64,000 nt of DNA, taken from positions 33,913 to 97,912 of IMG/VR virus record IMGVR_UViG_3300032030_000040; one strand, given 5' to 3'. The translations under genes were made by a program, and so were the position numbers. The stretch is from a virus. Its lineage: Duplodnaviria; Caudoviricetes. Shown here one piece after another: positions 15,547 through 53,426 of this stretch; position 1 is the first letter of the stretch, and every line of letters starts with the position of its first letter. The notes below the pieces were generated by a model that did no database searches, was not told where the DNA came from, and was given only the letters and a program-made list of their open reading frames with translations.

Positions 15547-17790
15547 ATGATTGATATTCGCAGTTTGCTCAATGGAGGTTTGGATGCTTTCGGAAAAACA
15601 TCTTCCGAGAGGTGGAAACTTCTTGTGCAGGCTGTGATAGAGCTTCAGAACCGTAAGTTCAGCGGAGGCTCTTCATCATCCTATTCAAACAACAATGGCT
15701 CCGGAAGCGGCTCTGGGGACGGTTCGGGTAGTGGTGACGGTTCAACTGTCGAGAGAGCAGAAGAGGCCAATCATGCGAAAGAGGCAGACCACGCAAAGGA
15801 AGCCGATCATGCCAAAAACGCTGATTATGCCAATAACATCAATGCAGATTCTTCTTTCTTCAAGCAATGGCTAAGAAGGGATGCAGAGGACTTCGCAGAA
15901 GAGGAAATAGGATTTCTGAAAGGTCTTTGGATAAAAGCCAAGGGGCTGTTTGGTATTGACAAGGACGGTAACGCAAAACTGAGCAGCGTCAAAGTCATCA
16001 ACACCCTTAATGTGGATGGTGAGACCATCCTAAAACAGACGACCATCGGCAATTATGAGAAGGATATCTATGTAGGCATAGGTTCCAGAGAGGGAATCCG
16101 CATGAATCCAGACGGAAGCATTATCGCCCGTTCGCTGGAGCTGAGCGAATCCCTTCAGGTACCAATGATAAAATACAATTCCATCGAGGTGCTTTCTGGT
16201 ACCAGATGGGACTCTGCAGGTAAGGGTCGTGTAAAGGAGGTTATCTACGTTGACGAGAACACCCACACCTGTCAGTTCGTGCTTGACCTGAACGACGGAG
16301 AGCCTGGCGAGTTCGTGGTAAACGATATCCTGAGAGGCTTCTGGCACAACATGGACGGAACGAAGAACGCAACGGCCAACACCGATGACCATCACGGCAA
16401 CATCACCCGTGCTGGCTTCATGTCTATCTACTGCCGTGTGATTGCTGTGGCCGATGTAGTGGAGCGTACCGATGACGAGGCGACTACCTATGTAGCAAAG
16501 GACGCAGGCTATAAGCCGCAGGTCGATGACGTCATTCTGGCTAACGGCCTTGTGACCGTTCAGGTACGCCAGTTCTCGACAGACCCCGAAAGGTGGTCAC
16601 CATATCCTGAGAAGTGGTCAGTGCTCAGTGTCAGCGGATTCTTTGGTACCGACCATCCAGAGCGTCAGAACTTCTTCGTATATACCACTTCATATATGGC
16701 CCGATTCCAAGGGGTCAACACATGGGAGTGGGAAGACCATACCTTCATGGGTGGCTGGGGCGACCTTACGGGCTTCACGATGATGGAACTTGGAGAGGAC
16801 GGCCAGACTGTCTATCGTAAGGAGTTCAACGGTGAGGGCTTCGTGACCAAGGACGCACACATCTACGGAATACTGGAGCAGTTCACCCGTTTCTCTGACC
16901 GCATAGAAATCATCCTGTCCCATCCCGACGGAACGATTGCAGAGGGTGAAGATGTCAAGGCTGAGTTTGCCTTGAAGACTATGGATGACGAGCTCATCAC
17001 TGGCGGCTACATGATGACGATAACAAGGCAGTCCGGCGACGCAGAGGCCGATACCCTTTGGAACGAGCGAATGGAGGGAGAATACCCAGACGGAATACCG
17101 CAGGCGCTCTACTTCCATTTTGCGGACGTTCCTGAGCACGGTGCGGTGTTCGTGGTTGTCGGGAAGCGTCAGGTGCAGACCGAGGACGGATATGACACCT
17201 ATACCACTTCTGCCTCTTTCGTGCTGTCCCGTGCAGTCATTCAGGAGGACTTCAAGGGGGAATGGAACCCGAATACCACCTACACCCGTTCAGGCAGGGT
17301 CTATCCTACCGTGACGTGGGGAGGTTGCAAGTGGTATCTGGCTGCAGAGTCAAGCAAGGGTGAAGAGCCCTATCCTGGCTCATCGGTATGGAAGATGCTC
17401 TATGGAGTCACAGACCTCGAAATCCGCTTCTTTGACTCCAACGGCTTGCGTATCACATCATCACAGCAGGTGCCAGGCAATGTTGACCTCTATCTCAATC
17501 CTCGCCTTTTCTGTGGGAACTTCGACATCACGGGGCTGCTGAATGACTCAGACTGGACGTGGGAGCGTTACAGTGGAAACTATGACGAGAAGGTTGACAG
17601 CCGTTCGGAAGAAGACAGGCAGGCAGACCAAGGGTGGCCTTCACTCCACTGGCAGGAGAGGACACCGACACGCCAGATACGCATCATGAACGAGGATATG
17701 CCGCCGATATGGGGAAGTGGTCCTGTGGTGAACTTCATCGTGACGGCTGTCTATGACGGTATCGAGATTCCGAATATAGTATCAATATAA
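15547..17790 (+). CDS. Tail/virion protein with Gly-Ser linker and (EADHAK)n repeats
   Basis: 747 aa in structural operon; FKGEWNPNTTY carbohydrate-binding-like motif. Confidence 0.6.
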   Translation: MIDIRSLLNGGLDAFGKTSSERWKLLVQAVIELQNRKFSGGSSSSYSNNNGSGSGSGDGSGSGDGSTVERAEEANHAKEADHAKEADHAKNADYANNINADSSFFKQWLRRDAEDFAEEEIGFLKGLWIKAKGLFGIDKDGNAKLSSVKVINTLNVDGETILKQTTIGNYEKDIYVGIGSREGIRMNPDGSIIARSLELSESLQVPMIKYNSIEVLSGTRWDSAGKGRVKEVIYVDENTHTCQFVLDLNDGEPGEFVVNDILRGFWHNMDGTKNATANTDDHHGNITRAGFMSIYCRVIAVADVVERTDDEATTYVAKDAGYKPQVDDVILANGLVTVQVRQFSTDPERWSPYPEKWSVLSVSGFFGTDHPERQNFFVYTTSYMARFQGVNTWEWEDHTFMGGWGDLTGFTMMELGEDGQTVYRKEFNGEGFVTKDAHIYGILEQFTRFSDRIEIILSHPDGTIAEGEDVKAEFALKTMDDELITGGYMMTITRQSGDAEADTLWNERMEGEYPDGIPQALYFHFADVPEHGAVFVVVGKRQVQTEDGYDTYTTSASFVLSRAVIQEDFKGEWNPNTTYTRSGRVYPTVTWGGCKWYLAAESSKGEEPYPGSSVWKMLYGVTDLEIRFFDSNGLRITSSQQVPGNVDLYLNPRLFCGNFDITGLLNDSDWTWERYSGNYDEKVDSRSEEDRQADQGWPSLHWQERTPTRQIRIMNEDMPPIWGSGPVVNFIVTAVYDGIEIPNIVSI

Positions 17791-19742: not shown

Positions 19743-20921
19743 ATGAGAAAGCTCAACAACTCACAGCCGTTATCCGTTACGACCATCTACAGGCCGCTCA
19801 CCACGTCGCTGAAGATCGTGTCAATAGGGGAATTACCGACCACGCAGTTCTACTATCAGTCTGCAAGGGAGTGGTTCCCTGACCACACGAAGAATCCAGT
19901 CTATGACGAGAACGGGCTGCAGCAGGATGGTATCTTGCGTCTCAAAGCCGACTATTTCCTTCAGGATGAGGATGACCTTCTCGACACCTCTACTATCACA
20001 CCGCAAATCTACTGGTTCGTCAATGGCCAGCAGGTAAACAACCCTGATACGTCGAGGGACTATTACAATGTCGGGAACGACCTGTATGTGAAGAAGAACC
20101 TCACCCACCTTGAAGCCGCTACGATACGGTGTGACGTGGAGTTTACCGACCCACGTAACTCACAGAGAATCGTTCTCAGTGACACGCTCGTACTCAATGC
20201 CGTGCTGAAAGCCAAGGATGCCTGGCAGATAAACCTCCTTTGTGACAGGACACGCAAGCACTATCCCATCACATCTACGCAGACAGTCTATGACTTCGAG
20301 GCAGAGGTGCGTGAGGGTGCTATCCTGAGAAACAATGAGGTATCGTGGTTCTGGGACTATTCTCTTGACAACGGTAAGACGTTCAAGACCATCAACTCTG
20401 ACTGCCTGTGGTATGTAAGAGGACTGAAGACAAATAAGCTGACTGTCGATATGGACTATATTGAGAACCTGATGGTACGCTGCCGCATCGGAAGCACCAA
20501 GACCAAGACGGCTCCAGATATGCCCAACGAGGCGACGGTCTCAATGGCGTGGAGGTGGCCAGCCCTGAAGCCAGAGGTATTCAGCTATGGAGGAAACCGC
20601 ATCTTTGCTGAGAACGCAAGTATGCGTTTCGGCTTCTTCGTCCATGTGCCCAAGCACAGCGACATGACGGAAGCCCAGAAGCAGCACTGGCTCACAACAA
20701 GCTGGGTGGTACGCAGGCAGGGAAGCACGGCGGCTCCTGTTGTGCTCAACGAGCACGGCATGGAGGTGGAAATCGCACAGCGTTTCTTGACAAATAACGC
20801 GCTGGGAAAGTTCATCCCAGACCCTCAGATTGGAGTACGTGGCGTGTATGACGTGGTGGCTTTTCATGACGGACAACTGATAGAGCTTTCCAACGGACAG
20901 ACATTTGCCATACGTAAATAA
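19743..20921 (+). CDS. Tail protein with Ig-like beta-rich domains
   Basis: 392 aa; IYWFVNG and SWFWDY motifs; precedes DGR target. Confidence 0.55.
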   Translation: MRKLNNSQPLSVTTIYRPLTTSLKIVSIGELPTTQFYYQSAREWFPDHTKNPVYDENGLQQDGILRLKADYFLQDEDDLLDTSTITPQIYWFVNGQQVNNPDTSRDYYNVGNDLYVKKNLTHLEAATIRCDVEFTDPRNSQRIVLSDTLVLNAVLKAKDAWQINLLCDRTRKHYPITSTQTVYDFEAEVREGAILRNNEVSWFWDYSLDNGKTFKTINSDCLWYVRGLKTNKLTVDMDYIENLMVRCRIGSTKTKTAPDMPNEATVSMAWRWPALKPEVFSYGGNRIFAENASMRFGFFVHVPKHSDMTEAQKQHWLTTSWVVRRQGSTAAPVVLNEHGMEVEIAQRFLTNNALGKFIPDPQIGVRGVYDVVAFHDGQLIELSNGQTFAIRK

Positions 20922-20949
20922 AAGTATTTACCTATTAAAAAGATTTCAT

Positions 20950-22191
20950 ATGATTAAGTCAAAAACAGAACTTGCATCTGGTGAGGGGATTTCAAAAGTC
21001 CTTTGTGTCACCAACCTCGGCAACGTCTTTGAGGCAACGCCGGAGGAACTGGGTAATGCCCAGACCCCTTCAACGGTCATCGGTGCTTTAGCCACCAATT
21101 TCACGCTGGAGGAAAACAGCAATCCAGCCTTCACGCTCAACAACCGTGGAGCTGCTGAGCTCTATCAGGCCCAGATGGGCGGTTATATGTTCCTTATCAA
21201 GGACGGAAAGGTTTACGCTGCCAAGCTGAACAGCGGAAACTGGGACTATTTCGCAGACGGCACTCAAGTAGCAGACGCCTCGAAGTTCGAGACGATGGTG
21301 CACGTTCCTGACTGTAACTTCAAGGGTGAGGGCAAGCACCTGAATTTCGGTGGCCTCGTTCCTGTTGACGGTGGTGAGGTGTTCGATTCTCCGCACTGGG
21401 TAGGAGCATACGAGATGTATGTCGATGGAAGCAACAAGGGTCACTCACGTCCCGATGTCGCTCCTGCTCACTCTAAGACCATGAGCGCATTTTGGAATTG
21501 CGCACAGAACCTCGGTTCTGAGTTCGGTCTGGCCAACTATGGTTTCCACTGCCTGATTAACGCTCTGTACCAGGCACGTTACGGCAATCTCAATTCTCAG
21601 GAGACAATCGGTGCTGGATTCCAGCACTCTTCATGGGAAGCTGCCCGTGACGTTCCTATGGGTCTGCTCCGTGCTCTTGGTGACGGCTCAGGTAAGGTTC
21701 TCTTCAATAACGCAACGCTGGGCGACCAGTACCCCGTGAAGCTCTTCGGCTTCGAGGACCTGTGGGGAAAGCTCTGGGAGTTCCGTCCTGGCATCCGCTT
21801 CTACATGGACGGTGCCACACGTAAGGCTGTTGTCTATAAGGGCAATGTCGTGAGCAACACTGCTACAGGCCGTGAGTTCGAGTGTGGATGCACTGGCTCC
21901 AGCGGTGCTTATATCCGCTCAATGGAGTGTGGCCAGTATTGGGATATGATTGCACGTAGTACCAGCGGTGCAGGTGCTTCTACCTACTACTGTGACGGCT
22001 ATTGGTTCGCTGATAGTGGAGAGCTGCTGGGCGTTGGGGGTCGCGCGAGTGCTGGCGCTCTTTGCGGTCTTGCGTGCTCGTACTCGAATAACGACTTCTC
22101 GGACTCGAGGCCGCACATCGGCGCTCGGTTGGCCTTCTACGGAGAACCGGAAATCGTGAGCGGTGCAAAACTTGTGGCCTTGGCTGGATAG
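20950..22191 (+). CDS. DGR target 1: tail fiber/receptor-binding protein with C-terminal CLec-type variable region
   Basis: GFEDLWGKLWEF motif, YYCDGYW, C-terminal VR ending IGARLAF. Confidence 0.85.
   Translation: MIKSKTELASGEGISKVLCVTNLGNVFEATPEELGNAQTPSTVIGALATNFTLEENSNPAFTLNNRGAAELYQAQMGGYMFLIKDGKVYAAKLNSGNWDYFADGTQVADASKFETMVHVPDCNFKGEGKHLNFGGLVPVDGGEVFDSPHWVGAYEMYVDGSNKGHSRPDVAPAHSKTMSAFWNCAQNLGSEFGLANYGFHCLINALYQARYGNLNSQETIGAGFQHSSWEAARDVPMGLLRALGDGSGKVLFNNATLGDQYPVKLFGFEDLWGKLWEFRPGIRFYMDGATRKAVVYKGNVVSNTATGREFECGCTGSSGAYIRSMECGQYWDMIARSTSGAGASTYYCDGYWFADSGELLGVGGRASAGALCGLACSYSNNDFSDSRPHIGARLAFYGEPEIVSGAKLVALAG
22021..22140 (+). repeat. DGR variable repeat VR1 (with putative IMH)
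   Basis: Ungapped match to TR at offset 540; 14 mismatches in 111 nt, all at TR adenines (4 more A-site differences in the last 9 nt). Confidence 0.95.
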
Positions 22192-22228
22192 GCCAAGAGC
22201 CAGCAAGTCGCTGAACGGAAAACGGATT

Positions 22229-22242
22229 GGGGCGTAAGCCCC
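22229..22242 (+). other. GC hairpin downstream of VR1 (candidate DGR target-recognition cruciform)
   Basis: GGGGC-GTAA-GCCCC. Confidence 0.45.
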
Positions 22243-22560
22243 TCCGCTTCCTTTCAATGGGAATAATAACAAACAGAAAAAGTAACAATTTAAAAAAGTC
22301 GCATTTGGAGAGAGAGCCGTTTCGCAGAAACATCACTTGAAGGATGCTTGAACTAAGAAGAAAACTGGGGCTGAAAAGGCTATGACAGCGGTCTGGCTTT
22401 CCAGAACACGAAGAAAGAAAAGACATTGTGCCTGCCGTTGCGTGAGGTTTTTACCTTCTACTACGTCTCGGAGGAACAGGCACATAGGGCAGACGAAAGA
22501 GAAAAGTCCCATGCTGCTTCGAGAGGCACGGGATTCTGCCCGAAAAGGCGATACATCGTG

Positions 22561-22680
22561 GAGCTGCTGAACGTTGGGGGTAACGCGAATAATGGCGCTA
22601 ATTGCGGTCTTGCGTACTCGAACTCGAATAACGACTTCTCGAACTCGAGGACGAACATCGGCGCTCGGTTGAAATTATAC
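22561..22680 (+). repeat. DGR template repeat (TR)
   Basis: 10 in-frame AAY codons; adenine-only differences from two VRs; lies upstream of RT. Confidence 0.95.
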
Positions 22681-22936
22681 ACTATAAATAAAAAGAATTA
22701 CACTGTCCAACGAGAAATCCAAGGACACGCGATTGAGCCTACTCGATGGAGGGCATACAGGTAAGTCCCGACAGAGTGAACATAAAAGGCGTAGGGTATG
22801 AGGGCATGAAGCCCAACAGAGTCCCCTCACGTAAGTAAGCAATACAGTTGTACGTATATACCGAACACCTGAGAGCCGAGAAGTGTAGAAGGCCTGGCCA
22901 TAGAAAGCCGATCAGCCCAAGGCAGAGAAAAGACGA

Positions 22937-24304
22937 ATGGCAGAAGTCGAACTGGCATACAAGCGCAAGGCTCGCCTGAGAGGTAAGAACCGCAAGGTGA
23001 GAATCGAGCAGGTTTACGACATGCAGAACCTCATAGCTGCTGACCATGAAGCCCGCAAGGGGAAGCGTGGCCATAAGGGTGTGCGTGAGTTCGACAAAGA
23101 CAAGGATGGTAACTTCCTGCTTCTTCAGCAGATGATTAAGGAAGGAACCTACCACACGTCGCCAGGCCATGAGTGCGTCCGCCACTGTCCCTGTGGAAAG
23201 GACAGGCTGCTGCATAAGCTGCCGTACTTCCCAGACCACATAGACCATCATGCGCTCATGCAGGTTATCATGCCAGTGCTGCTGAAGTATTACTACTATG
23301 ACTCTGCAGCCAGTATCAAGGGGAAGGGTATGCACTTTGCAGCCCGTAGGACGGAACGATGGATAGACGAGAACAAGGACGCCGGAAGGCTGTACTATGC
23401 CAAGCTGGACTTCGTGAAGTTCTACCACCTCATTAACCAGCTGCTTATCTACGAGTTCCTTTGCAGTATCTTCGGCAACAAGGGAATCCGTTACCTTCTC
23501 TGGGAGGTGGTGACGGCCTGTGAGCAAGGGCTGGGAATCGGGCTCTATCCCATCCAGCCTATCGCCAATGCCTATACTTGTCCGCTTTGCCGCCTGCTGA
23601 TGCGGAAGTTCCGTGTCAGGATAGAGATATACTGTGACGATATCCTTATCATGTCACGCTGGAAGAAAGAGGTCTGGAGAGCCGTGAATTTCGTTCAGTG
23701 GTATGCGAGGGAGGTCATGCGCCAACCTCTTCATGACAATATCGGAGTCCAGATTATCGACACCACTCGCAGGGTGGACTTCGTGGGCTATCAGTATTTC
23801 TTCTGCCACACTCTTCTTCGCAAGAAGATGAAGTGCAAGTTCAAGCAGCGCATGAGCCAGCTGAAGGACGAAATGCTCCGCTATCAGGTGGCCACATCTT
23901 ACAAGGGGTGGATGATGCACTGTGACGGCTACAACCTCTGGTGTGCAGTGATGAAGATGAAGTCATTCAAAGAACTGGGAGTTCCCACCTTTGAGAAGAA
24001 GGATGCCGACGGCAAGCGGATGCTTGAAGGTACCCGTGTGTCGATGGAGTCTCTTGAAGGCCATGAGATAGCTTTCCTTGATGTCGAGTTTGATGTAAGG
24101 TCTAAGTATGACGGCAAGAAGAACGAACCGAAATTCTCCGCTGTCGTGCAGGTTGAGGAATACGGAAAGAAGAAAAAGTTCTTCACCAACAATCCCAAGC
24201 TGCAGGACACGCTTAGATACGTGAAAGATAACGGAATGTTCCCCTTCAAGGGTACGCTGGTGCCCATCAACAAGACGGGACTGCCCGACTACGAGATTCA
24301 GTAA
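22937..24304 (+). CDS. DGR reverse transcriptase with fused C-terminal domain
   Basis: KLDFVKFY, GLGIGLYPIQ, YCDD (23630-23641) and VDFVGY motifs; adjacent TR/VR. Confidence 0.93.
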   Translation: MAEVELAYKRKARLRGKNRKVRIEQVYDMQNLIAADHEARKGKRGHKGVREFDKDKDGNFLLLQQMIKEGTYHTSPGHECVRHCPCGKDRLLHKLPYFPDHIDHHALMQVIMPVLLKYYYYDSAASIKGKGMHFAARRTERWIDENKDAGRLYYAKLDFVKFYHLINQLLIYEFLCSIFGNKGIRYLLWEVVTACEQGLGIGLYPIQPIANAYTCPLCRLLMRKFRVRIEIYCDDILIMSRWKKEVWRAVNFVQWYAREVMRQPLHDNIGVQIIDTTRRVDFVGYQYFFCHTLLRKKMKCKFKQRMSQLKDEMLRYQVATSYKGWMMHCDGYNLWCAVMKMKSFKELGVPTFEKKDADGKRMLEGTRVSMESLEGHEIAFLDVEFDVRSKYDGKKNEPKFSAVVQVEEYGKKKKFFTNNPKLQDTLRYVKDNGMFPFKGTLVPINKTGLPDYEIQ

Positions 24305-30750: not shown

Positions 30751-30853
30751 ATATTTGATAAAAATTTCCCCTAAATTATTTGCATATTTGATAAATTATT
30801 TGTACCTTTGTCGTAGCAAATAAGATAAACGATTTCAAAACATTCTAATTATG
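30751..30853 (+). promoter_or_regulatory. Repeated promoter/leader cassette copy 4
   Basis: TTTGCATATTTGATAAATTATTTGTACCTTTG-TCGTAGCAAATAAGATAA; extra ATATTTGATAAA upstream. Confidence 0.85.
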
Positions 30854-32675: not shown

Positions 32676-33245
32676 ATGAAACTTTTACTGTTCGATTTAG
32701 AGACTACTGGTACTGATGTCGTGAAGCACGGCGTCCACCAGATTTCAGGTAGAGTCATCATCAATGGCGAGGTGAAGGAGAACTTCGACTTCAAGGTACG
32801 TCCGAAAGATGGTGCAGAGTATGACCCTGTGGCCCTGCAGGTCGGTAACGTCACCAAGGAGCAGCTGGAGGCCTACCCCTCAATGCGTGAGGTGTTCCCC
32901 AAGCTCAAGGCCATGCTTGACAAGTATGTGAACAAGTTCGACAAGTTCGACAAGTTCTTCCTTGTGGGCTATAACAATGCCCATTTCGACAACCAGTTCT
33001 TCCGTCAGTTCTTCTTGGATTGTGGGGAGAAGTATTTCGGTTCTTATTTCTGGTCCAACTCTTGCGACTGTATGGTACTGGCCACTCCGTTCCTGATGGA
33101 TAAGCGGAAGGAAATGGTTGACTTCAAGCAGGCCACCGTTGCAAAGGCTCTGGGTGTAGAGGTAGAGGCAGACAAGCTGCATGATGCCTCCTATGATATC
33201 ATCCTGTGTCATGCTATCTATGACAAGGTTTGTGGCAAATACTAA
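32676..33245 (+). CDS. DEDDh 3'-5' exonuclease (DnaQ-like)
   Basis: FDLETTG, GYNNAHFD, LHDASYDI. Confidence 0.88.
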   Translation: MKLLLFDLETTGTDVVKHGVHQISGRVIINGEVKENFDFKVRPKDGAEYDPVALQVGNVTKEQLEAYPSMREVFPKLKAMLDKYVNKFDKFDKFFLVGYNNAHFDNQFFRQFFLDCGEKYFGSYFWSNSCDCMVLATPFLMDKRKEMVDFKQATVAKALGVEVEADKLHDASYDIILCHAIYDKVCGKY

Positions 33246-38198: not shown

Positions 38199-38683
38199 TG
38201 AAGAGAGAGGAACTATTTGCCAAGATATCATGCCAGACTGGTAAGATGCCAGTCCAGTGCTGTTGTGAACGGTGCAAGGCTCAATGCCATACGCCATGCC
38301 TCGGAACGCCTCACGATATCCTTGCCCTTATTGATGCAGGGTACGCCTGGAGTCTGTGTTTCACGGAGTGGGCTGCTGGTGTTACGCACAGGATGACGGA
38401 CAAAATCATTCCGATGGTGCAGATAAAGGAACGTTTCGGGTGGTGTGTCCTGTATCATGATGGATTGTGTGAGCTTCACGAAAAAGGTCTGAAACCCACT
38501 GAAGGCAGACTGTCATCCCATGAGTTCAGGGAGATAGAGCTTAGGCCAGAGTTCAATGTCACATACCAAGTGGCAGCTACATGGCTTGATGATAGTCATC
38601 TTGATGTGGTGAAGGAGATTGTCAGGAAGCTCGGAGAGTATTGGGATTCAACAAAAACAAATAATTCAAATCAAACGTTATGA
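38195..38683 (+). CDS. YkgJ/CxxCxxCC-like cysteine-cluster protein
   Basis: CCCERCKAQC...CVLYHDGLCELHE..KP. Confidence 0.6.
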   Translation: MMKREELFAKISCQTGKMPVQCCCERCKAQCHTPCLGTPHDILALIDAGYAWSLCFTEWAAGVTHRMTDKIIPMVQIKERFGWCVLYHDGLCELHEKGLKPTEGRLSSHEFREIELRPEFNVTYQVAATWLDDSHLDVVKEIVRKLGEYWDSTKTNNSNQTL

Positions 38684-39618
38684 AGAGTATCTTATTAAGT
38701 CTGCCTGATGGTCAGGCGGAAGTGTTCACCAAAAGATTGGTTGAGCTCATGAAAGAGTGCGGTGTGTCCGCACAGATAACGGCTCCTGAAGCCGAAGTGT
38801 TCAATCCAGAGGCAGGCTGTTTTGTCGCCTTTGGTGATGACACCTGCGAAGAGAATCCGTTTGTCGGTATCTTCAAAGAATGGTACAATGGTTCCAACGA
38901 CAAGATTATCTGCTATGCTCATGTCAATGGCGAAGGGATACTACAGGCTGAGGAAGAGTACTGGAATGCCGACAAGGTTTTACGTCCTGCCACTGATGAG
39001 GAAACAGAGGCGCTTATCAAGGCACTTGCCAAGAACGGCAGACGATGGAACAGTGAAGAGCTGGAGTTTGAGGACTGTGGTACCTACGAGGCGATCCGCA
39101 CTTTTGAGGACGCTCTGGAGAAGGTCACGGAACTGTCAGAGAAGCAAGAGGGTTTCAATGAGGGCAAGGACAATGTGTATAGTGCCATGCTTTATGCCTA
39201 CTATCATCTGGAGAACCATGTGGAGAAGGCTTACACCGAAAACAAGTTCAATCAGGACATCATTGCCTTCATTAAGTTGCGTATCATCGTAGCTGCTATA
39301 AATGACGGTTGGATGCCTAAATTCGTGGAGGGTGAATACCGTTGGTTCCCTTGGTTCCGTCTCTACACTCAGGCTGAGATAGACGCTATGAGCGAAGAAC
39401 AACGTGCGAAGGTTCTGCTCGTTGGGGGTGGCGCGAATAGTGGCGCTGTTTGCGGTCTTGCGTGCTCGATCTCGAATGACGACTTCTCGATCTCGAGGAC
39501 GCGCATCGGCGCTCGGTTGGCCTTCTCGGACAAAGCGAGAGCGGAATATGCTGGAAAACGGTTCATCGAATTGTATGCAGCCCTGAATTTCAGGGCGGTG
39601 GAACGGAAAGCGGAATAA
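38680..39618 (+). CDS. DGR target 2: non-structural phage protein with internal variable region
   Basis: Contains VR2; RPATDEE..L..NGRRWN and KLRIIVAAINDGW.P motifs; 33 codons follow the VR. Confidence 0.85.
   Translation: MKSILLSLPDGQAEVFTKRLVELMKECGVSAQITAPEAEVFNPEAGCFVAFGDDTCEENPFVGIFKEWYNGSNDKIICYAHVNGEGILQAEEEYWNADKVLRPATDEETEALIKALAKNGRRWNSEELEFEDCGTYEAIRTFEDALEKVTELSEKQEGFNEGKDNVYSAMLYAYYHLENHVEKAYTENKFNQDIIAFIKLRIIVAAINDGWMPKFVEGEYRWFPWFRLYTQAEIDAMSEEQRAKVLLVGGGANSGAVCGLACSISNDDFSISRTRIGARLAFSDKARAEYAGKRFIELYAALNFRAVERKAE
39415..39527 (+). repeat. DGR variable repeat VR2 (remote)
   Basis: Ungapped match to TR 22567-22671 at offset 16848; 13 mismatches, all at TR adenines. Confidence 0.93.
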
Positions 39619-39774: not shown

Positions 39775-40347
39775 GTGAACTGGATTTTGAATATAATTAA
39801 CTGGTGCCAGACTTGGAAAGTCGTATGGGCTGTACTCGGAGGAATCTTCGGGTGGTTCATCGGGGAGTTCCAGCCGACATTCCCCCTCATGGGAGCTGTG
39901 ATAGTTTTGATTGTCAGTGATGCTTGGACGGCATACCAACTTGACAAGAGAGTGCATAGGAAATATCCGAGTAAGGTAAAGAGGGATGAAGCCAAGTTCA
40001 CAAGTTTTGCTTTCGGAAAGGTTGTCAGGCAGACCATTCCGAAACGTCTCTGGCTCATCATTCTTGCCTTCATCGTCGAACACTGGATATTCATTCATGT
40101 GGAGATTCCTTTGAGCTATATTGTGGCCGGAGTGATTGCTTTTGAGCAGATATTAAGTATTCTGGAAAACGAGGCTTCATGTCGGGAAGATGACAGTGAC
40201 GGGCGTTTCTGGAAGATGCTCAAGAAACTCCTTATTGACAAGACCGAAAGGCATTTTGACGTAGAGCTTGGGGAATTGCGTGACCCAGACCAGAAGCGCA
40301 AGCGTCCAAGGCACAAGCCAAGCTACAGGGAAAACGAAGAATTATAA
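39775..40347 (+). CDS. Holin (Phage_holin_4_1-like)
   Basis: Three TM segments, SILENEAS motif, basic C-terminus. Confidence 0.75.
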
Positions 40348-40357
40348 AACCCAAAAT

Positions 40358-41644
40358 ATGTTTTCAAAGCACAGTTTATTTACATCTGAGGCAGTATCAG
40401 AAGGCCACCCCGACAAGGTGGCCGACCAGATTTCTGACGCTATCCTCGATGCGCACATTGCGAAAGACCCGTCATCGAAGGTGGCGTGTGAGACGATGGT
40501 CACCACTGGCCAGGTCATCGTAGCTGGAGAAATCAAGTCTGCAGCAAAAGTTGATGTTCAGGAGGTAGTGAGGAACACCATCAAGCGTATTGGCTATGAC
40601 AGGCCAGAGTTGAAATTTGACGGCGAGAGCTGTGGAGTCATTAACCTCATGCACGAACAGAGTGCCGACATTCGTAGGGGTGTCGAGCGCCATGAACCCA
40701 TGAATCAGGGCGCAGGCGATCAGGGCATGATGTTCGGATATGCGACAGACGAGACAGAGGCTTTCATGCCTTTGCCTATTTACTTGGCCAACCTCATCGT
40801 GAAAGAGCTGGCTGCTATCCGCAGGGAGCACGTCTGCATGATGTACCTACGTCCAGACGCAAAGAGTCAAGTAACGGTTGAATATGACGAGAACGGAAAA
40901 GCCGTTCATATCGACACGATTGTAGTTTCCACCCAGCATGACGAGTTTATTACGCCAGACAACTGCAATCTGCCAGACGAAGCAGATGCGGAAATGCGAG
41001 ACCTTATCACCTACGATATCGAGAACTATGTACTGCCAAGGGTGAAGGAGCGTATCAGCTCTGATGAAATCCTGGCACTCTTCGACAAGAACACGAAGCT
41101 GCTGGTGAATCCGACTGGAAAGTTTGTCATCGGTGGCCCTCATGGTGACACAGGTCTGACAGGCCGTAAGATTATCGTAGATACATACGGAGGCAAGGGC
41201 GCACATGGCGGTGGCGCTTTCTCAGGGAAAGACCCCAGCAAGGTTGACCGCTCTGCTGCTTACATGGCACGTTACATTGCGAAGAACATGGTAGCTGCTG
41301 GAGTTGCCAAGGAAATGCTGGTACAGCTGAGCTACGCCATTGGCATAGCGGAGCCAGTAAGCGTGAACGTCCAGACCTTCGGCACCTGTAAGGTCAACAA
41401 GACCGATGCGGAGATAGCCGGAATCATCAGGGAGATTTTCGACCTGAGACCAAAGGCCATCGAGTGCCAACTGTCACTGAGACAGCCTATCTATGAAGAG
41501 ACAGCTGCCTACGGTCATGTAGGTCGAGAACAGACGTGCGTGACCAAGACCATCGAAGGAGTGTCCTACAACGTAGCTCTGTTTACGTGGGAAGCCCTTG
41601 ATTCCGTGGAGAAGATTCTTGAATACTTGAAGACAAACTCATAA
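40358..41644 (+). CDS. metK: S-adenosylmethionine synthetase
   Basis: [42 protein letters not shown] signatures. Confidence 0.97.
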
Positions 41645-52196: not shown

Positions 52197-53426
52197 TCAA
52201 AATCCCATTTCATCAATCAGTTCGTCCATTGTCTTGTCAGAAGCAACGGCGTCGAACACCTTACGGATGGCTGCATCAGCCATCCTTTTACTTACGTGTA
52301 TATAGTTGCCGATGGTCTTACTCCCTGTCGATGTGGAGTCACCGATACAAAACTCAATGACACTTTCCTTAATCATCAGCTCATTGGCAAGCTGGGCGAA
52401 GGTCTTTCTTGCTGAGTAGTAGATTAGCCGACTGTCAATATCGCAGGCTTTGGCCACGTCCTTCAAGTGACGGTTCAGGGTTCTGGTCAAGGAGCAATAT
52501 GTCCTACCCTTATGCTTGTACTGAATCTGTCCTCTGACGATCAGACGGTCTATAAGCTCCCGTGCTTCTGGCTGTATGGTGAACTCGGTGGATTGCTCTT
52601 CAGGTCTGTAGTTCATGGTCTTTTGTCTCAGGAAGCGGATGGACGGCTTTGAGAAATCAAGGCGCATGATATCTACGAGATTCATGCCGCACAGGTAGAA
52701 GGACAGCATGAAGAGGTCACGGGAAAATGTCATCTGCTCCTTGTAGCGTCCCTCAAACTCCTTGTCTCTTATAGTGCGTAGCTGCTCTATGGTCAGGCCA
52801 ACGTTACGAATCTTGTTCTTCGGCATATCGAAGTCTCGGAATGGCATGACATCATACTGAACCTTCTTGTATCTGACAGCGAAGGCGACGGCACCACGGA
52901 GATAGCCAAGGTACATGAGCTGGGTCGTGGAGTTCAGTCCTTTCTTTGTCAGGTAGTCTCTCAGCTCAAATAGCTTCATGGCATCCAGACGCTTCAAGGC
53001 ATAGTCCTCCGGAAAGAACGGTTCAATAGCAGCAATGGCCGTATTGAGGATGCGGATGGTGGAGTCAGAGGTGGAACGGAGTTTGTTCTGTCTGTAAAGC
53101 TGGAAGGCTTCATGCAAGGTAATAGGCCTTTCACCCTTAATCCTTTCCTCTATCATGTCAAGCAACTGTGAACAGGTAAGGTAGTCTGTGTCCTCTATCT
53201 GGTCGAAGGCTTTATATATATCAGACATCTGTTTGAGTAGCTGCTGGTTTATGTATGAGGCATTGGGGATTCCAGAGACGCTACCACCGACCAAACAGCC
53301 TGGCGTGTTCACCTTAAAGCGTGTCATGAAGTAGCGAGTGGTTCCTCGATGAGACATGGCAATCCTGATTCGGTGTGTCCCATCGGAGAGCACCTTGGCT
53401 GGAAGTATTGTCGGTTTGAGCTTCAT
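52197..53426 (-). CDS. int: Tyrosine recombinase/integrase (Bacteroidales type)
   Basis: Arm-binding N-terminus; RDLFMLSFYLCGMNLVDI, YSARKTFA and NYIH motifs. Confidence 0.88.
   Translation of the reverse strand: MKLKPTILPAKVLSDGTHRIRIAMSHRGTTRYFMTRFKVNTPGCLVGGSVSGIPNASYINQQLLKQMSDIYKAFDQIEDTDYLTCSQLLDMIEERIKGERPITLHEAFQLYRQNKLRSTSDSTIRILNTAIAAIEPFFPEDYALKRLDAMKLFELRDYLTKKGLNSTTQLMYLGYLRGAVAFAVRYKKVQYDVMPFRDFDMPKNKIRNVGLTIEQLRTIRDKEFEGRYKEQMTFSRDLFMLSFYLCGMNLVDIMRLDFSKPSIRFLRQKTMNYRPEEQSTEFTIQPEARELIDRLIVRGQIQYKHKGRTYCSLTRTLNRHLKDVAKACDIDSRLIYYSARKTFAQLANELMIKESVIEFCIGDSTSTGSKTIGNYIHVSKRMADAAIRKVFDAVASDKTMDELIDEMGF

Follow-up and report, generated by a model that had tools for sequence, protein, structure and literature searches.

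A single DGR in a Bacteroidales phage from the sheep gut acts on two genes, one of which encodes a tail protein (target 1), while the other (target 2) lies outside the structural operon, its variable repeat being located 16.8 kb downstream of the template repeat. One template repeat (TR) serves two variable repeats (VR1 and VR2), the remote VR is diversified in nature, and LoVEphage, a phage apparently of a different lineage, has a target of the same family and a related TR. Considering the evidence laid out below, it is highly probable that the target 2 gene is a true remote second target of the phage's only DGR, with a product that would be a cytoplasmic, non-virion protein engaged in conflict. 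The window analyzed here is a stretch of 64,000 nucleotides (bases 33913–97912) from a complete genome of 97,912 bp with direct terminal repeats. Its source is a sheep gut metagenome, and relatives are present in sheep and goat gut samples. The features are collected in Table 1.

Table 1. Features of the DGR, its two targets and their surroundings, in window coordinates
Feature	Position	Strand	Remarks
Target 1, tail protein (phrog_5302)	20905..22191	+	VR1 within
VR1	22027..22131	+	In target 1
VR1 counterpart of the IMH-like end	22120-22138		Same G+C-rich end, then GCCTTCT
TR of the DGR	22567..22671	+	25 adenines; 15 A-containing codons, 10 of them AAY
DGR reverse transcriptase	22937..24304	+	455 aa, intact, YCDD motif
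Two upstream genes, 183 aa and 162 aa	37647..38683	+	phrog_25265 and phrog_19147, function-unknown families
Target 2 gene	38680..39618	+	312 aa, acidic, pI 4.7; member of phrog_11581
N-terminal module (aa 1-135)	38680..39084	+	Only in forms of ~290-312 aa
Conserved core (aa ~100-312)	38977..39615	+	Common to ~195-aa LoVEphage-type proteins
Middle helical cassette	39115..39316	+	Exchanged among phages otherwise ~99% identical; contig joints 39114>39315/39317
VR2	39415..39519	+	13 substitutions relative to the TR, all at TR adenines; codes for aa 246-280 of target 2
IMH-like 3′ end	39508..39526	+	G+C-rich end common to TR, VR1 and VR2, then GCCTTCT; sequence read directly
Downstream conserved genes	39775..41644	+	190-aa gene, then S-adenosylmethionine synthetase (MetK)

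One template repeat and two variable repeats

Aligned without gaps, the TR and VR2 differ at 13 of 105 positions, and all 13 mismatches fall on the 25 adenines of the TR (hypergeometric P = 3.7e-10), a recomputation that returns the same count as a preliminary description of this DNA. Between the TR and VR1, adenines likewise account for 14 of 14 mismatches. When the adenines of the TR are relaxed to any base, a scan of the window recovers exactly three copies (VR1, TR, and VR2), and the whole 97.9-kb genome holds the same three only. Nine A sites carry a substitution in VR1 and VR2 alike, and since just four of the nine have the same new base, the two VRs must have been filled independently, as the preliminary description had proposed when it called the substitutions mostly unlike and spoke of independent retrohoming. 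Both VRs are in frame with their host genes (frame 0 of the ORF for VR2), and BLASTP confines the similarity between targets 1 and 2 to a 40-aa VR stretch, in agreement with the earlier view that the two proteins are otherwise unrelated; the 33 codons said to follow VR2 are 32 codons and the stop. The A-containing codons of the TR allow ~4e14 protein variants without any stop codon arising.

Beyond the G+C-rich end that all three repeats share, GCCTTCT is carried by VR1 and VR2 only, whereas the TR has AAATTAT there. This difference between VR and TR at the 3′ end, which also holds in a distant relative (L010) and in LoVEphage, appears to be an IMH-type asymmetry. Because the VRs share both the G+C-rich end and GCCTTCT, and the TR is without GCCTTCT, information would flow one way. 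A hairpin of the BPP-1 kind after the VR is unsupported: folded as DNA, the 80 nt that follow VR1, VR2, and the TR gave nothing better than shuffled sequence. A motif, GAACGGAAA(A/G)CGGA, is found at 22213–22226 and 39601–39614, where it begins exactly 82 nt past both VR ends. Close relatives keep it behind VR2; in L010 and LoVEphage it is absent at the 82-nt offset, so that it is not a general DGR signal.

The adjacent reverse transcriptase (RT) matches phrog_1423 (E 3e-60), is ~30% identical to the DGR RTs of LoVEphage and Hankyphage, and matches Pfam RVT_1 under the cut-off of that family. It is a long protein, in which ~110 additional C-terminal residues match phrog_19665. The cassette is not canonical, as no Avd gene is seen: the intervals separating target 1, the TR, and the RT (22192–24304) contain no suitably sized ORF, and in the six ORFs scanned at the cassette Pfam reports nothing of Avd type. 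Some DGRs have no Avd, so its absence here does not exclude membership among them. Target 1, searched against PDB sequences, matched nothing.

Comparisons among relatives indicate that VR2 is functional as a DGR site and diversified in nature. In an alignment of 31 full-length target 2 homologues, 40–77% identical, the VR columns are hypervariable even between the closest homologues. Three relatives from other samples are 98–100% identical to this phage over the 100 nt upstream of VR2 and 95–97% over the 150 nt downstream, and 82–85% identical within VR2 itself; relative to this phage's TR, their VR2s have 14–23 substituted A sites and just 1–2 changes elsewhere. Over the RT and tail region, contigs of other sheep and gut samples diverge from the window by ~0.4%, yet the same contigs show 17 differences within VR1 and ~24 in the 384 nt around VR2. 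This variation was measured on contigs; some, from an RNA library, cover the region, which is in itself no sign of transcription. Invariance of VR2 across populations, which the preliminary description had raised as a counter-indication, is thus not what is seen. The arrangement extends to L010, whose target 2 protein is 45% identical and in which VR1, TR, and VR2 are all present: VR1 ends a long upstream ORF, the TR sits beside it, and VR2 lies 6 kb away in the target 2 homologue, with 16 of 16 TR–VR2 mismatches at adenines. IMG/VR classes L010 as a provirus. A search of IMG/VR for exact matches to the A-relaxed core of the TR returned nothing.

Target 2 and its protein family

Target 2 combines an N-terminal module of about 100–135 aa with a shared core, and the match to phrog_11581, a function-unknown family of PHROGs, covers aa 100–303 (E 9e-39). 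The family of target 1, phrog_5302, also matches the VR stretch. Pfam gives nothing for target 2, and PADLOC finds nothing in it or in nine neighbors. AlphaFold confidently models the N-terminal module as a small beta-barrel (aa 40–106) followed by a helix and a hairpin. The core comprises a helical bundle, the motifs TFEDA and EYRYYPWF, the VR, and a C-terminal helix; a model of the core built on 92 sequences (pLDDT 81) shows three bundled helices, a segment of poor structure, the VR, and, at the C-terminus, a pair of helices. In both AlphaFold models, full-length and core, the VR stays below pLDDT 50.

Searches with these models and sequences yielded few leads. For the full-length and core models, no PDB match reached E <= 0.001 in Foldseek, and among 48,161 chains compared by VIA-align none exceeded Z 5.6; the weak matches from the two programs are to generic helical bundles and to Sm/SH3-like structures, the latter with the beta-barrel at aa 40–106 (Z 5.6 over 62 residues, rmsd 2.4). 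No lectin-fold protein is among the Foldseek and VIA-align matches listed, which were obtained with a VR modeled at pLDDT < 50. The family profile found nothing among PDB sequences, a BFVD search returned uncharacterized viral proteins only, and a protein atlas search with the N-terminal part returned unnamed viral clusters only. Target 2 contains no recognizable fiber, Ig, or attachment domain.

Target 2 is only ~70% identical between phages whose flanking genes are 98–100% identical. The exchanged middle helical cassette is present in at least three types in the alignment, unrelated to each other, and such swapping, read from sequence, would represent a second, non-DGR source of variation in target 2.

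The family is large. In a protein library clustered at 50% identity, the core profile recovers 3,309 representatives at E <= 0.001 and 416 at E <= 1e-30, mostly of 160–210 aa and some with N-terminal extensions; a word-indexed search recovers 113 homologues. The proteins are acidic (median pI 4.6–4.8), and genes of the family are seen in non-structural neighborhoods in three kinds of phage context. One short form of 227 aa (P0055) contains a tandem pair of VR-like segments, which reflects either duplication of the VR or an artifact of assembly at the hypervariable site.

In two members, P0053 (L019:2876–3688) and the full ORF of L018 (9917–10735), a Tad2-like domain (PF11195) precedes the core; P0053 scores 31.3 bits against PF11195, for which the cut-off is 25. 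In the public annotation, the start of the L018 copy (P0052) is placed too far downstream, which truncates it. Both copies adjoin primase-like genes, and the L018 copy also ThyX, Dam, and YopX genes. The fusion is rare, at 1 of 26 extended forms scanned. Tad2/DUF2829 proteins sequester gcADPR, the signal of Thoeris (bioRxiv 10.1101/2023.05.01.538930), and the domain related to them occupies in P0053 and L018 the place of the beta-barrel module found here. That module is itself no candidate Tad2 relative, as there is no PF11195 match at E <= 1 and the hhalign probability is 0.5%. The N-termini of the family therefore look modular and interchangeable, and the Tad2-like fusion favors a core that acts inside the cell, in conflict with defense systems.

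Genomic surroundings and kinship with LoVEphage

The structural operon that precedes target 2 comprises protease, capsid, portal, tail, target 1, RT, and a 1209-aa protein, and the target 2 gene lies outside it; to call the gene non-structural is a statement about its position. All genes around it are on one strand, the same as that of the cassette, and its position tells little of its timing. The upstream 162-aa gene overlaps the start of target 2 by 4 bases, and both this gene and the 183-aa gene adjoin target 2 even in remote members of the same phage family, within which the order of 107-aa gene, 183-aa gene, 162-aa gene, target 2, 190-aa gene, and MetK is kept. No name for the conserved neighbors of target 2 was obtained from PHROGs, Pfam, or PADLOC. 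MetK (40358–41644) has all three MetK domains and is present in all relatives examined. The gap of 157 nt behind target 2 holds a T-run and a TAnnTTTG motif, and a transcription end of its own there is probable.

Farther out, an RNase T-like exonuclease (32676–33245) lies upstream, and an endolysin downstream, with the lysis genes ~3 kb from target 2. The preliminary description had placed the gene at the end of an accessory block with nuclease, exonuclease, NTase-like, ART-like, and Cys-cluster genes; of these, Pfam and PHROGs bear out the exonuclease, as RNase T-like, and add an HTH regulator, while the NTase-like, ART-like, and Cys-cluster assignments are unsupported. A tyrosine integrase (52197–53426) is the sole long gene on the minus strand, and because of it the phage is probably temperate. 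At 30776–30831, where the structural operon gives way to the accessory block, numerous contigs of other samples are broken or joined, or pile up, with a summed depth of up to ~880; this pile-up fits a short repeated promoter-and-leader element common to related phages.

Outside its own phage family, target 2 has homologues in LoVEphage and in cultured relatives from Bacteroides and Phocaeicola. In tblastn searches against phage records, aa 195–299 match a hypothetical protein of ~194 aa in these phages at 45–49% identity, and the 194-aa CDS of LoVEphage is 49% identical to the C-terminal part of target 2 over 105 aa. In LoVEphage (OY731444), VR2 is contained in that CDS (15651–16235), with the TR and VR1 ~16 kb away on the other strand; 9 of 9 mismatches between this VR2 and its TR are at adenines, and the TR is ~80% nucleotide-identical to the one described here. 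The two phages therefore have in common a target of phrog_11581, a related TR, a tail protein diversified by the same DGR, and a target gene located in a non-structural region at a distance from the RT. Because the target family is shared and the TRs are related, the two represent the same DGR and target system and not a convergent one.

The two also differ. The LoVEphage target is a single-domain protein of ~195 aa on the strand opposite to the cassette, whereas here the protein has 312 aa with an added N-terminal beta-barrel module and is encoded on the same strand as the cassette. The LoVEphage RT matches in three pieces (published as frameshifted), whereas the RT here, ~30% identical, is a single intact ORF. 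The neighbors of the LoVEphage target are DNA methyltransferases and a tRNA ligase, in place of the RNase T-like exonuclease, MetK, and lysis genes found here, and by tblastn no partner gene is common to the two loci. In megablast the phage has no match to any phage record. For the portal, the closest match among the best 12 of 147 is Bacteroides phage BS-TP3 at 56%, and LoVEphage is absent among those best 12. Judged by its genome, the phage appears to belong to a different lineage from LoVEphage, rumen-type, 98 kb in size, and from the sheep gut.

A remote, non-structural DGR target has already been published. In Quimbyvirus, genes for methyltransferases and a tRNA ligase surround a second target (Benler et al., 2021; PMC8008677), a description that the LoVEphage locus fits, and four cultured prophage species have a second, distal VR near counter-defense genes (Dahlman et al., 2025; PMC12629997). 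The Quimbyviridae-like precedent that the preliminary description named is thus correct, and by homology, with phrog_11581 shared and the TRs related.

More distant systems provide further points of comparison. With the DGR of Bordetella phage BPP-1, which diversifies the Mtd tail-fiber tip, the present one shares the A-specific transfer from TR to VR, an AAY-rich TR, a VR near the C-terminal end of the target, and a VR-specific IMH-like 3′ end. The BPP-1 target is a tail fiber, whereas target 2 is not and lies 16.8 kb from the TR, and here neither an Avd gene nor a significant hairpin after the VR is found. A C-type lectin fold, the kind of Mtd and TvpA, has been assigned in the literature and may apply to target 2, whose VR is modeled at pLDDT < 50 with no lectin fold among the matches listed. 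The tentaclins are likewise two target genes of one phage DGR that resemble each other only in the VR-bearing part; they carry a C-type lectin domain at the N-terminus with Ig domains behind it, and a receptor-binding role has been proposed for them (PMC10743442). Unlike in these proteins, the VR of target 2 is C-terminal, no Ig domain appears in Pfam or in the model, and the gene lies in non-structural surroundings.

Possible roles of the remote target

In the mechanism that best accommodates these observations, the adjacent RT would copy the TR RNA, making errors specifically at adenines, and the cDNA would replace VR1 of the tail protein and, in separate events, the VR2 located 16.8 kb downstream. 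The fifteen variable codons, with the ~4e14 variants that they permit, would be borne on the C-terminal part of the conserved core. Target 2 would then be a binding protein whose specificity the DGR resets in the course of phage–host or phage–phage conflict, and we infer that its variable surface is directed at changing molecules of the host or of competitors. As to where it does so, we lean toward the cytoplasm, outside the virion.

The opposite location has a case of its own. Target 2 might be a virion component, that is, a second receptor-binding or adhesin module (a decoration or a fiber tip) that is encoded apart and widens host range as VR1 does. Characterized phage DGR targets bind receptors, the VR is of the same type as that of the tail protein, phrog_5302 matches the VR stretch, and the lysis genes ~3 kb downstream are of a kind usually expressed late. 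Other two-target phage DGRs, those of the tentaclins, have moreover been read as double receptor binders (PMC10743442). We nevertheless judge a place in the virion unlikely, given that target 2 has no recognizable fiber, Ig, or attachment domain and lacks the tentaclin architecture of N-terminal lectin and Ig domains. Its relatives point the same way: in LoVEphage the homologues lie on the opposite strand with methyltransferases and a tRNA ligase around them, those in a third phage context sit beside primase-like, ThyX, and Dam genes, and one form is fused to the domain of a Tad2-like small-molecule sponge.

An action inside the cell could also take another form, in which target 2 serves the lysogen as a prophage-expressed hypervariable sensor or blocker of superinfecting phages, in superinfection exclusion; this is a variant of the intracellular reading, and we give it a slim chance. 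No effector or NTPase domain is attached to the protein, and the gene is embedded in a long run of lytic-cycle genes on the same strand, away from the immunity region. In its favor can be counted the integrase and thus a probably temperate phage, the classification of the relative L010 as a provirus, the probable transcription end behind target 2, and the DGR-diversified putative sensors that are described in bacterial conflict systems (PMC10907252). To the idea that VR2 is a passive relic, copied once from the tail gene by recombination, unserviced by the DGR, and without selected function, we assign next to no weight. The restriction of the similarity between targets 1 and 2 to the VR is what such a copy would leave, whereas the substitutions in VR2 are A-specific and unlike those in VR1, VR2 differs among phages with 95–100% identical flanks, and the arrangement is kept in L010, with its 45% identical target 2, and in LoVEphage. 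The reading frame is, in addition, always open, both in the 113 homologues of the word-indexed search and in the 3,309 representatives of the profile search. An A-specific, population-variable, and conserved VR2 excludes a dead relic.

Returning to an intracellular conflict protein, a tentative extension, which we hold to be possible rather than probable, is that the phrog_11581 core is a DGR-programmable targeting domain combined with interchangeable N-terminal modules (none, the beta-barrel, or the Tad2-like domain), such that the family would act as antibody-like intracellular counter-defense adaptors. If true, these adaptors would be aimed at fast-changing factors of the host or of rival phages by the very retroelement that also retargets the tail. 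The Tad2-like fusion offers a concrete handle for experiments on this idea.

Although the kind of arrangement was already known, the locus described here adds the link between rumen and human gut, the size and modularity of the family, and testable leads; by homology, it ties the rumen and human-gut cases into one system. Of the phage DGR targets described, most bind receptors. A second target that lies apart from the structural genes and is conserved across unrelated gut and rumen lineages would point to a second use of targeted hypermutation in phages.
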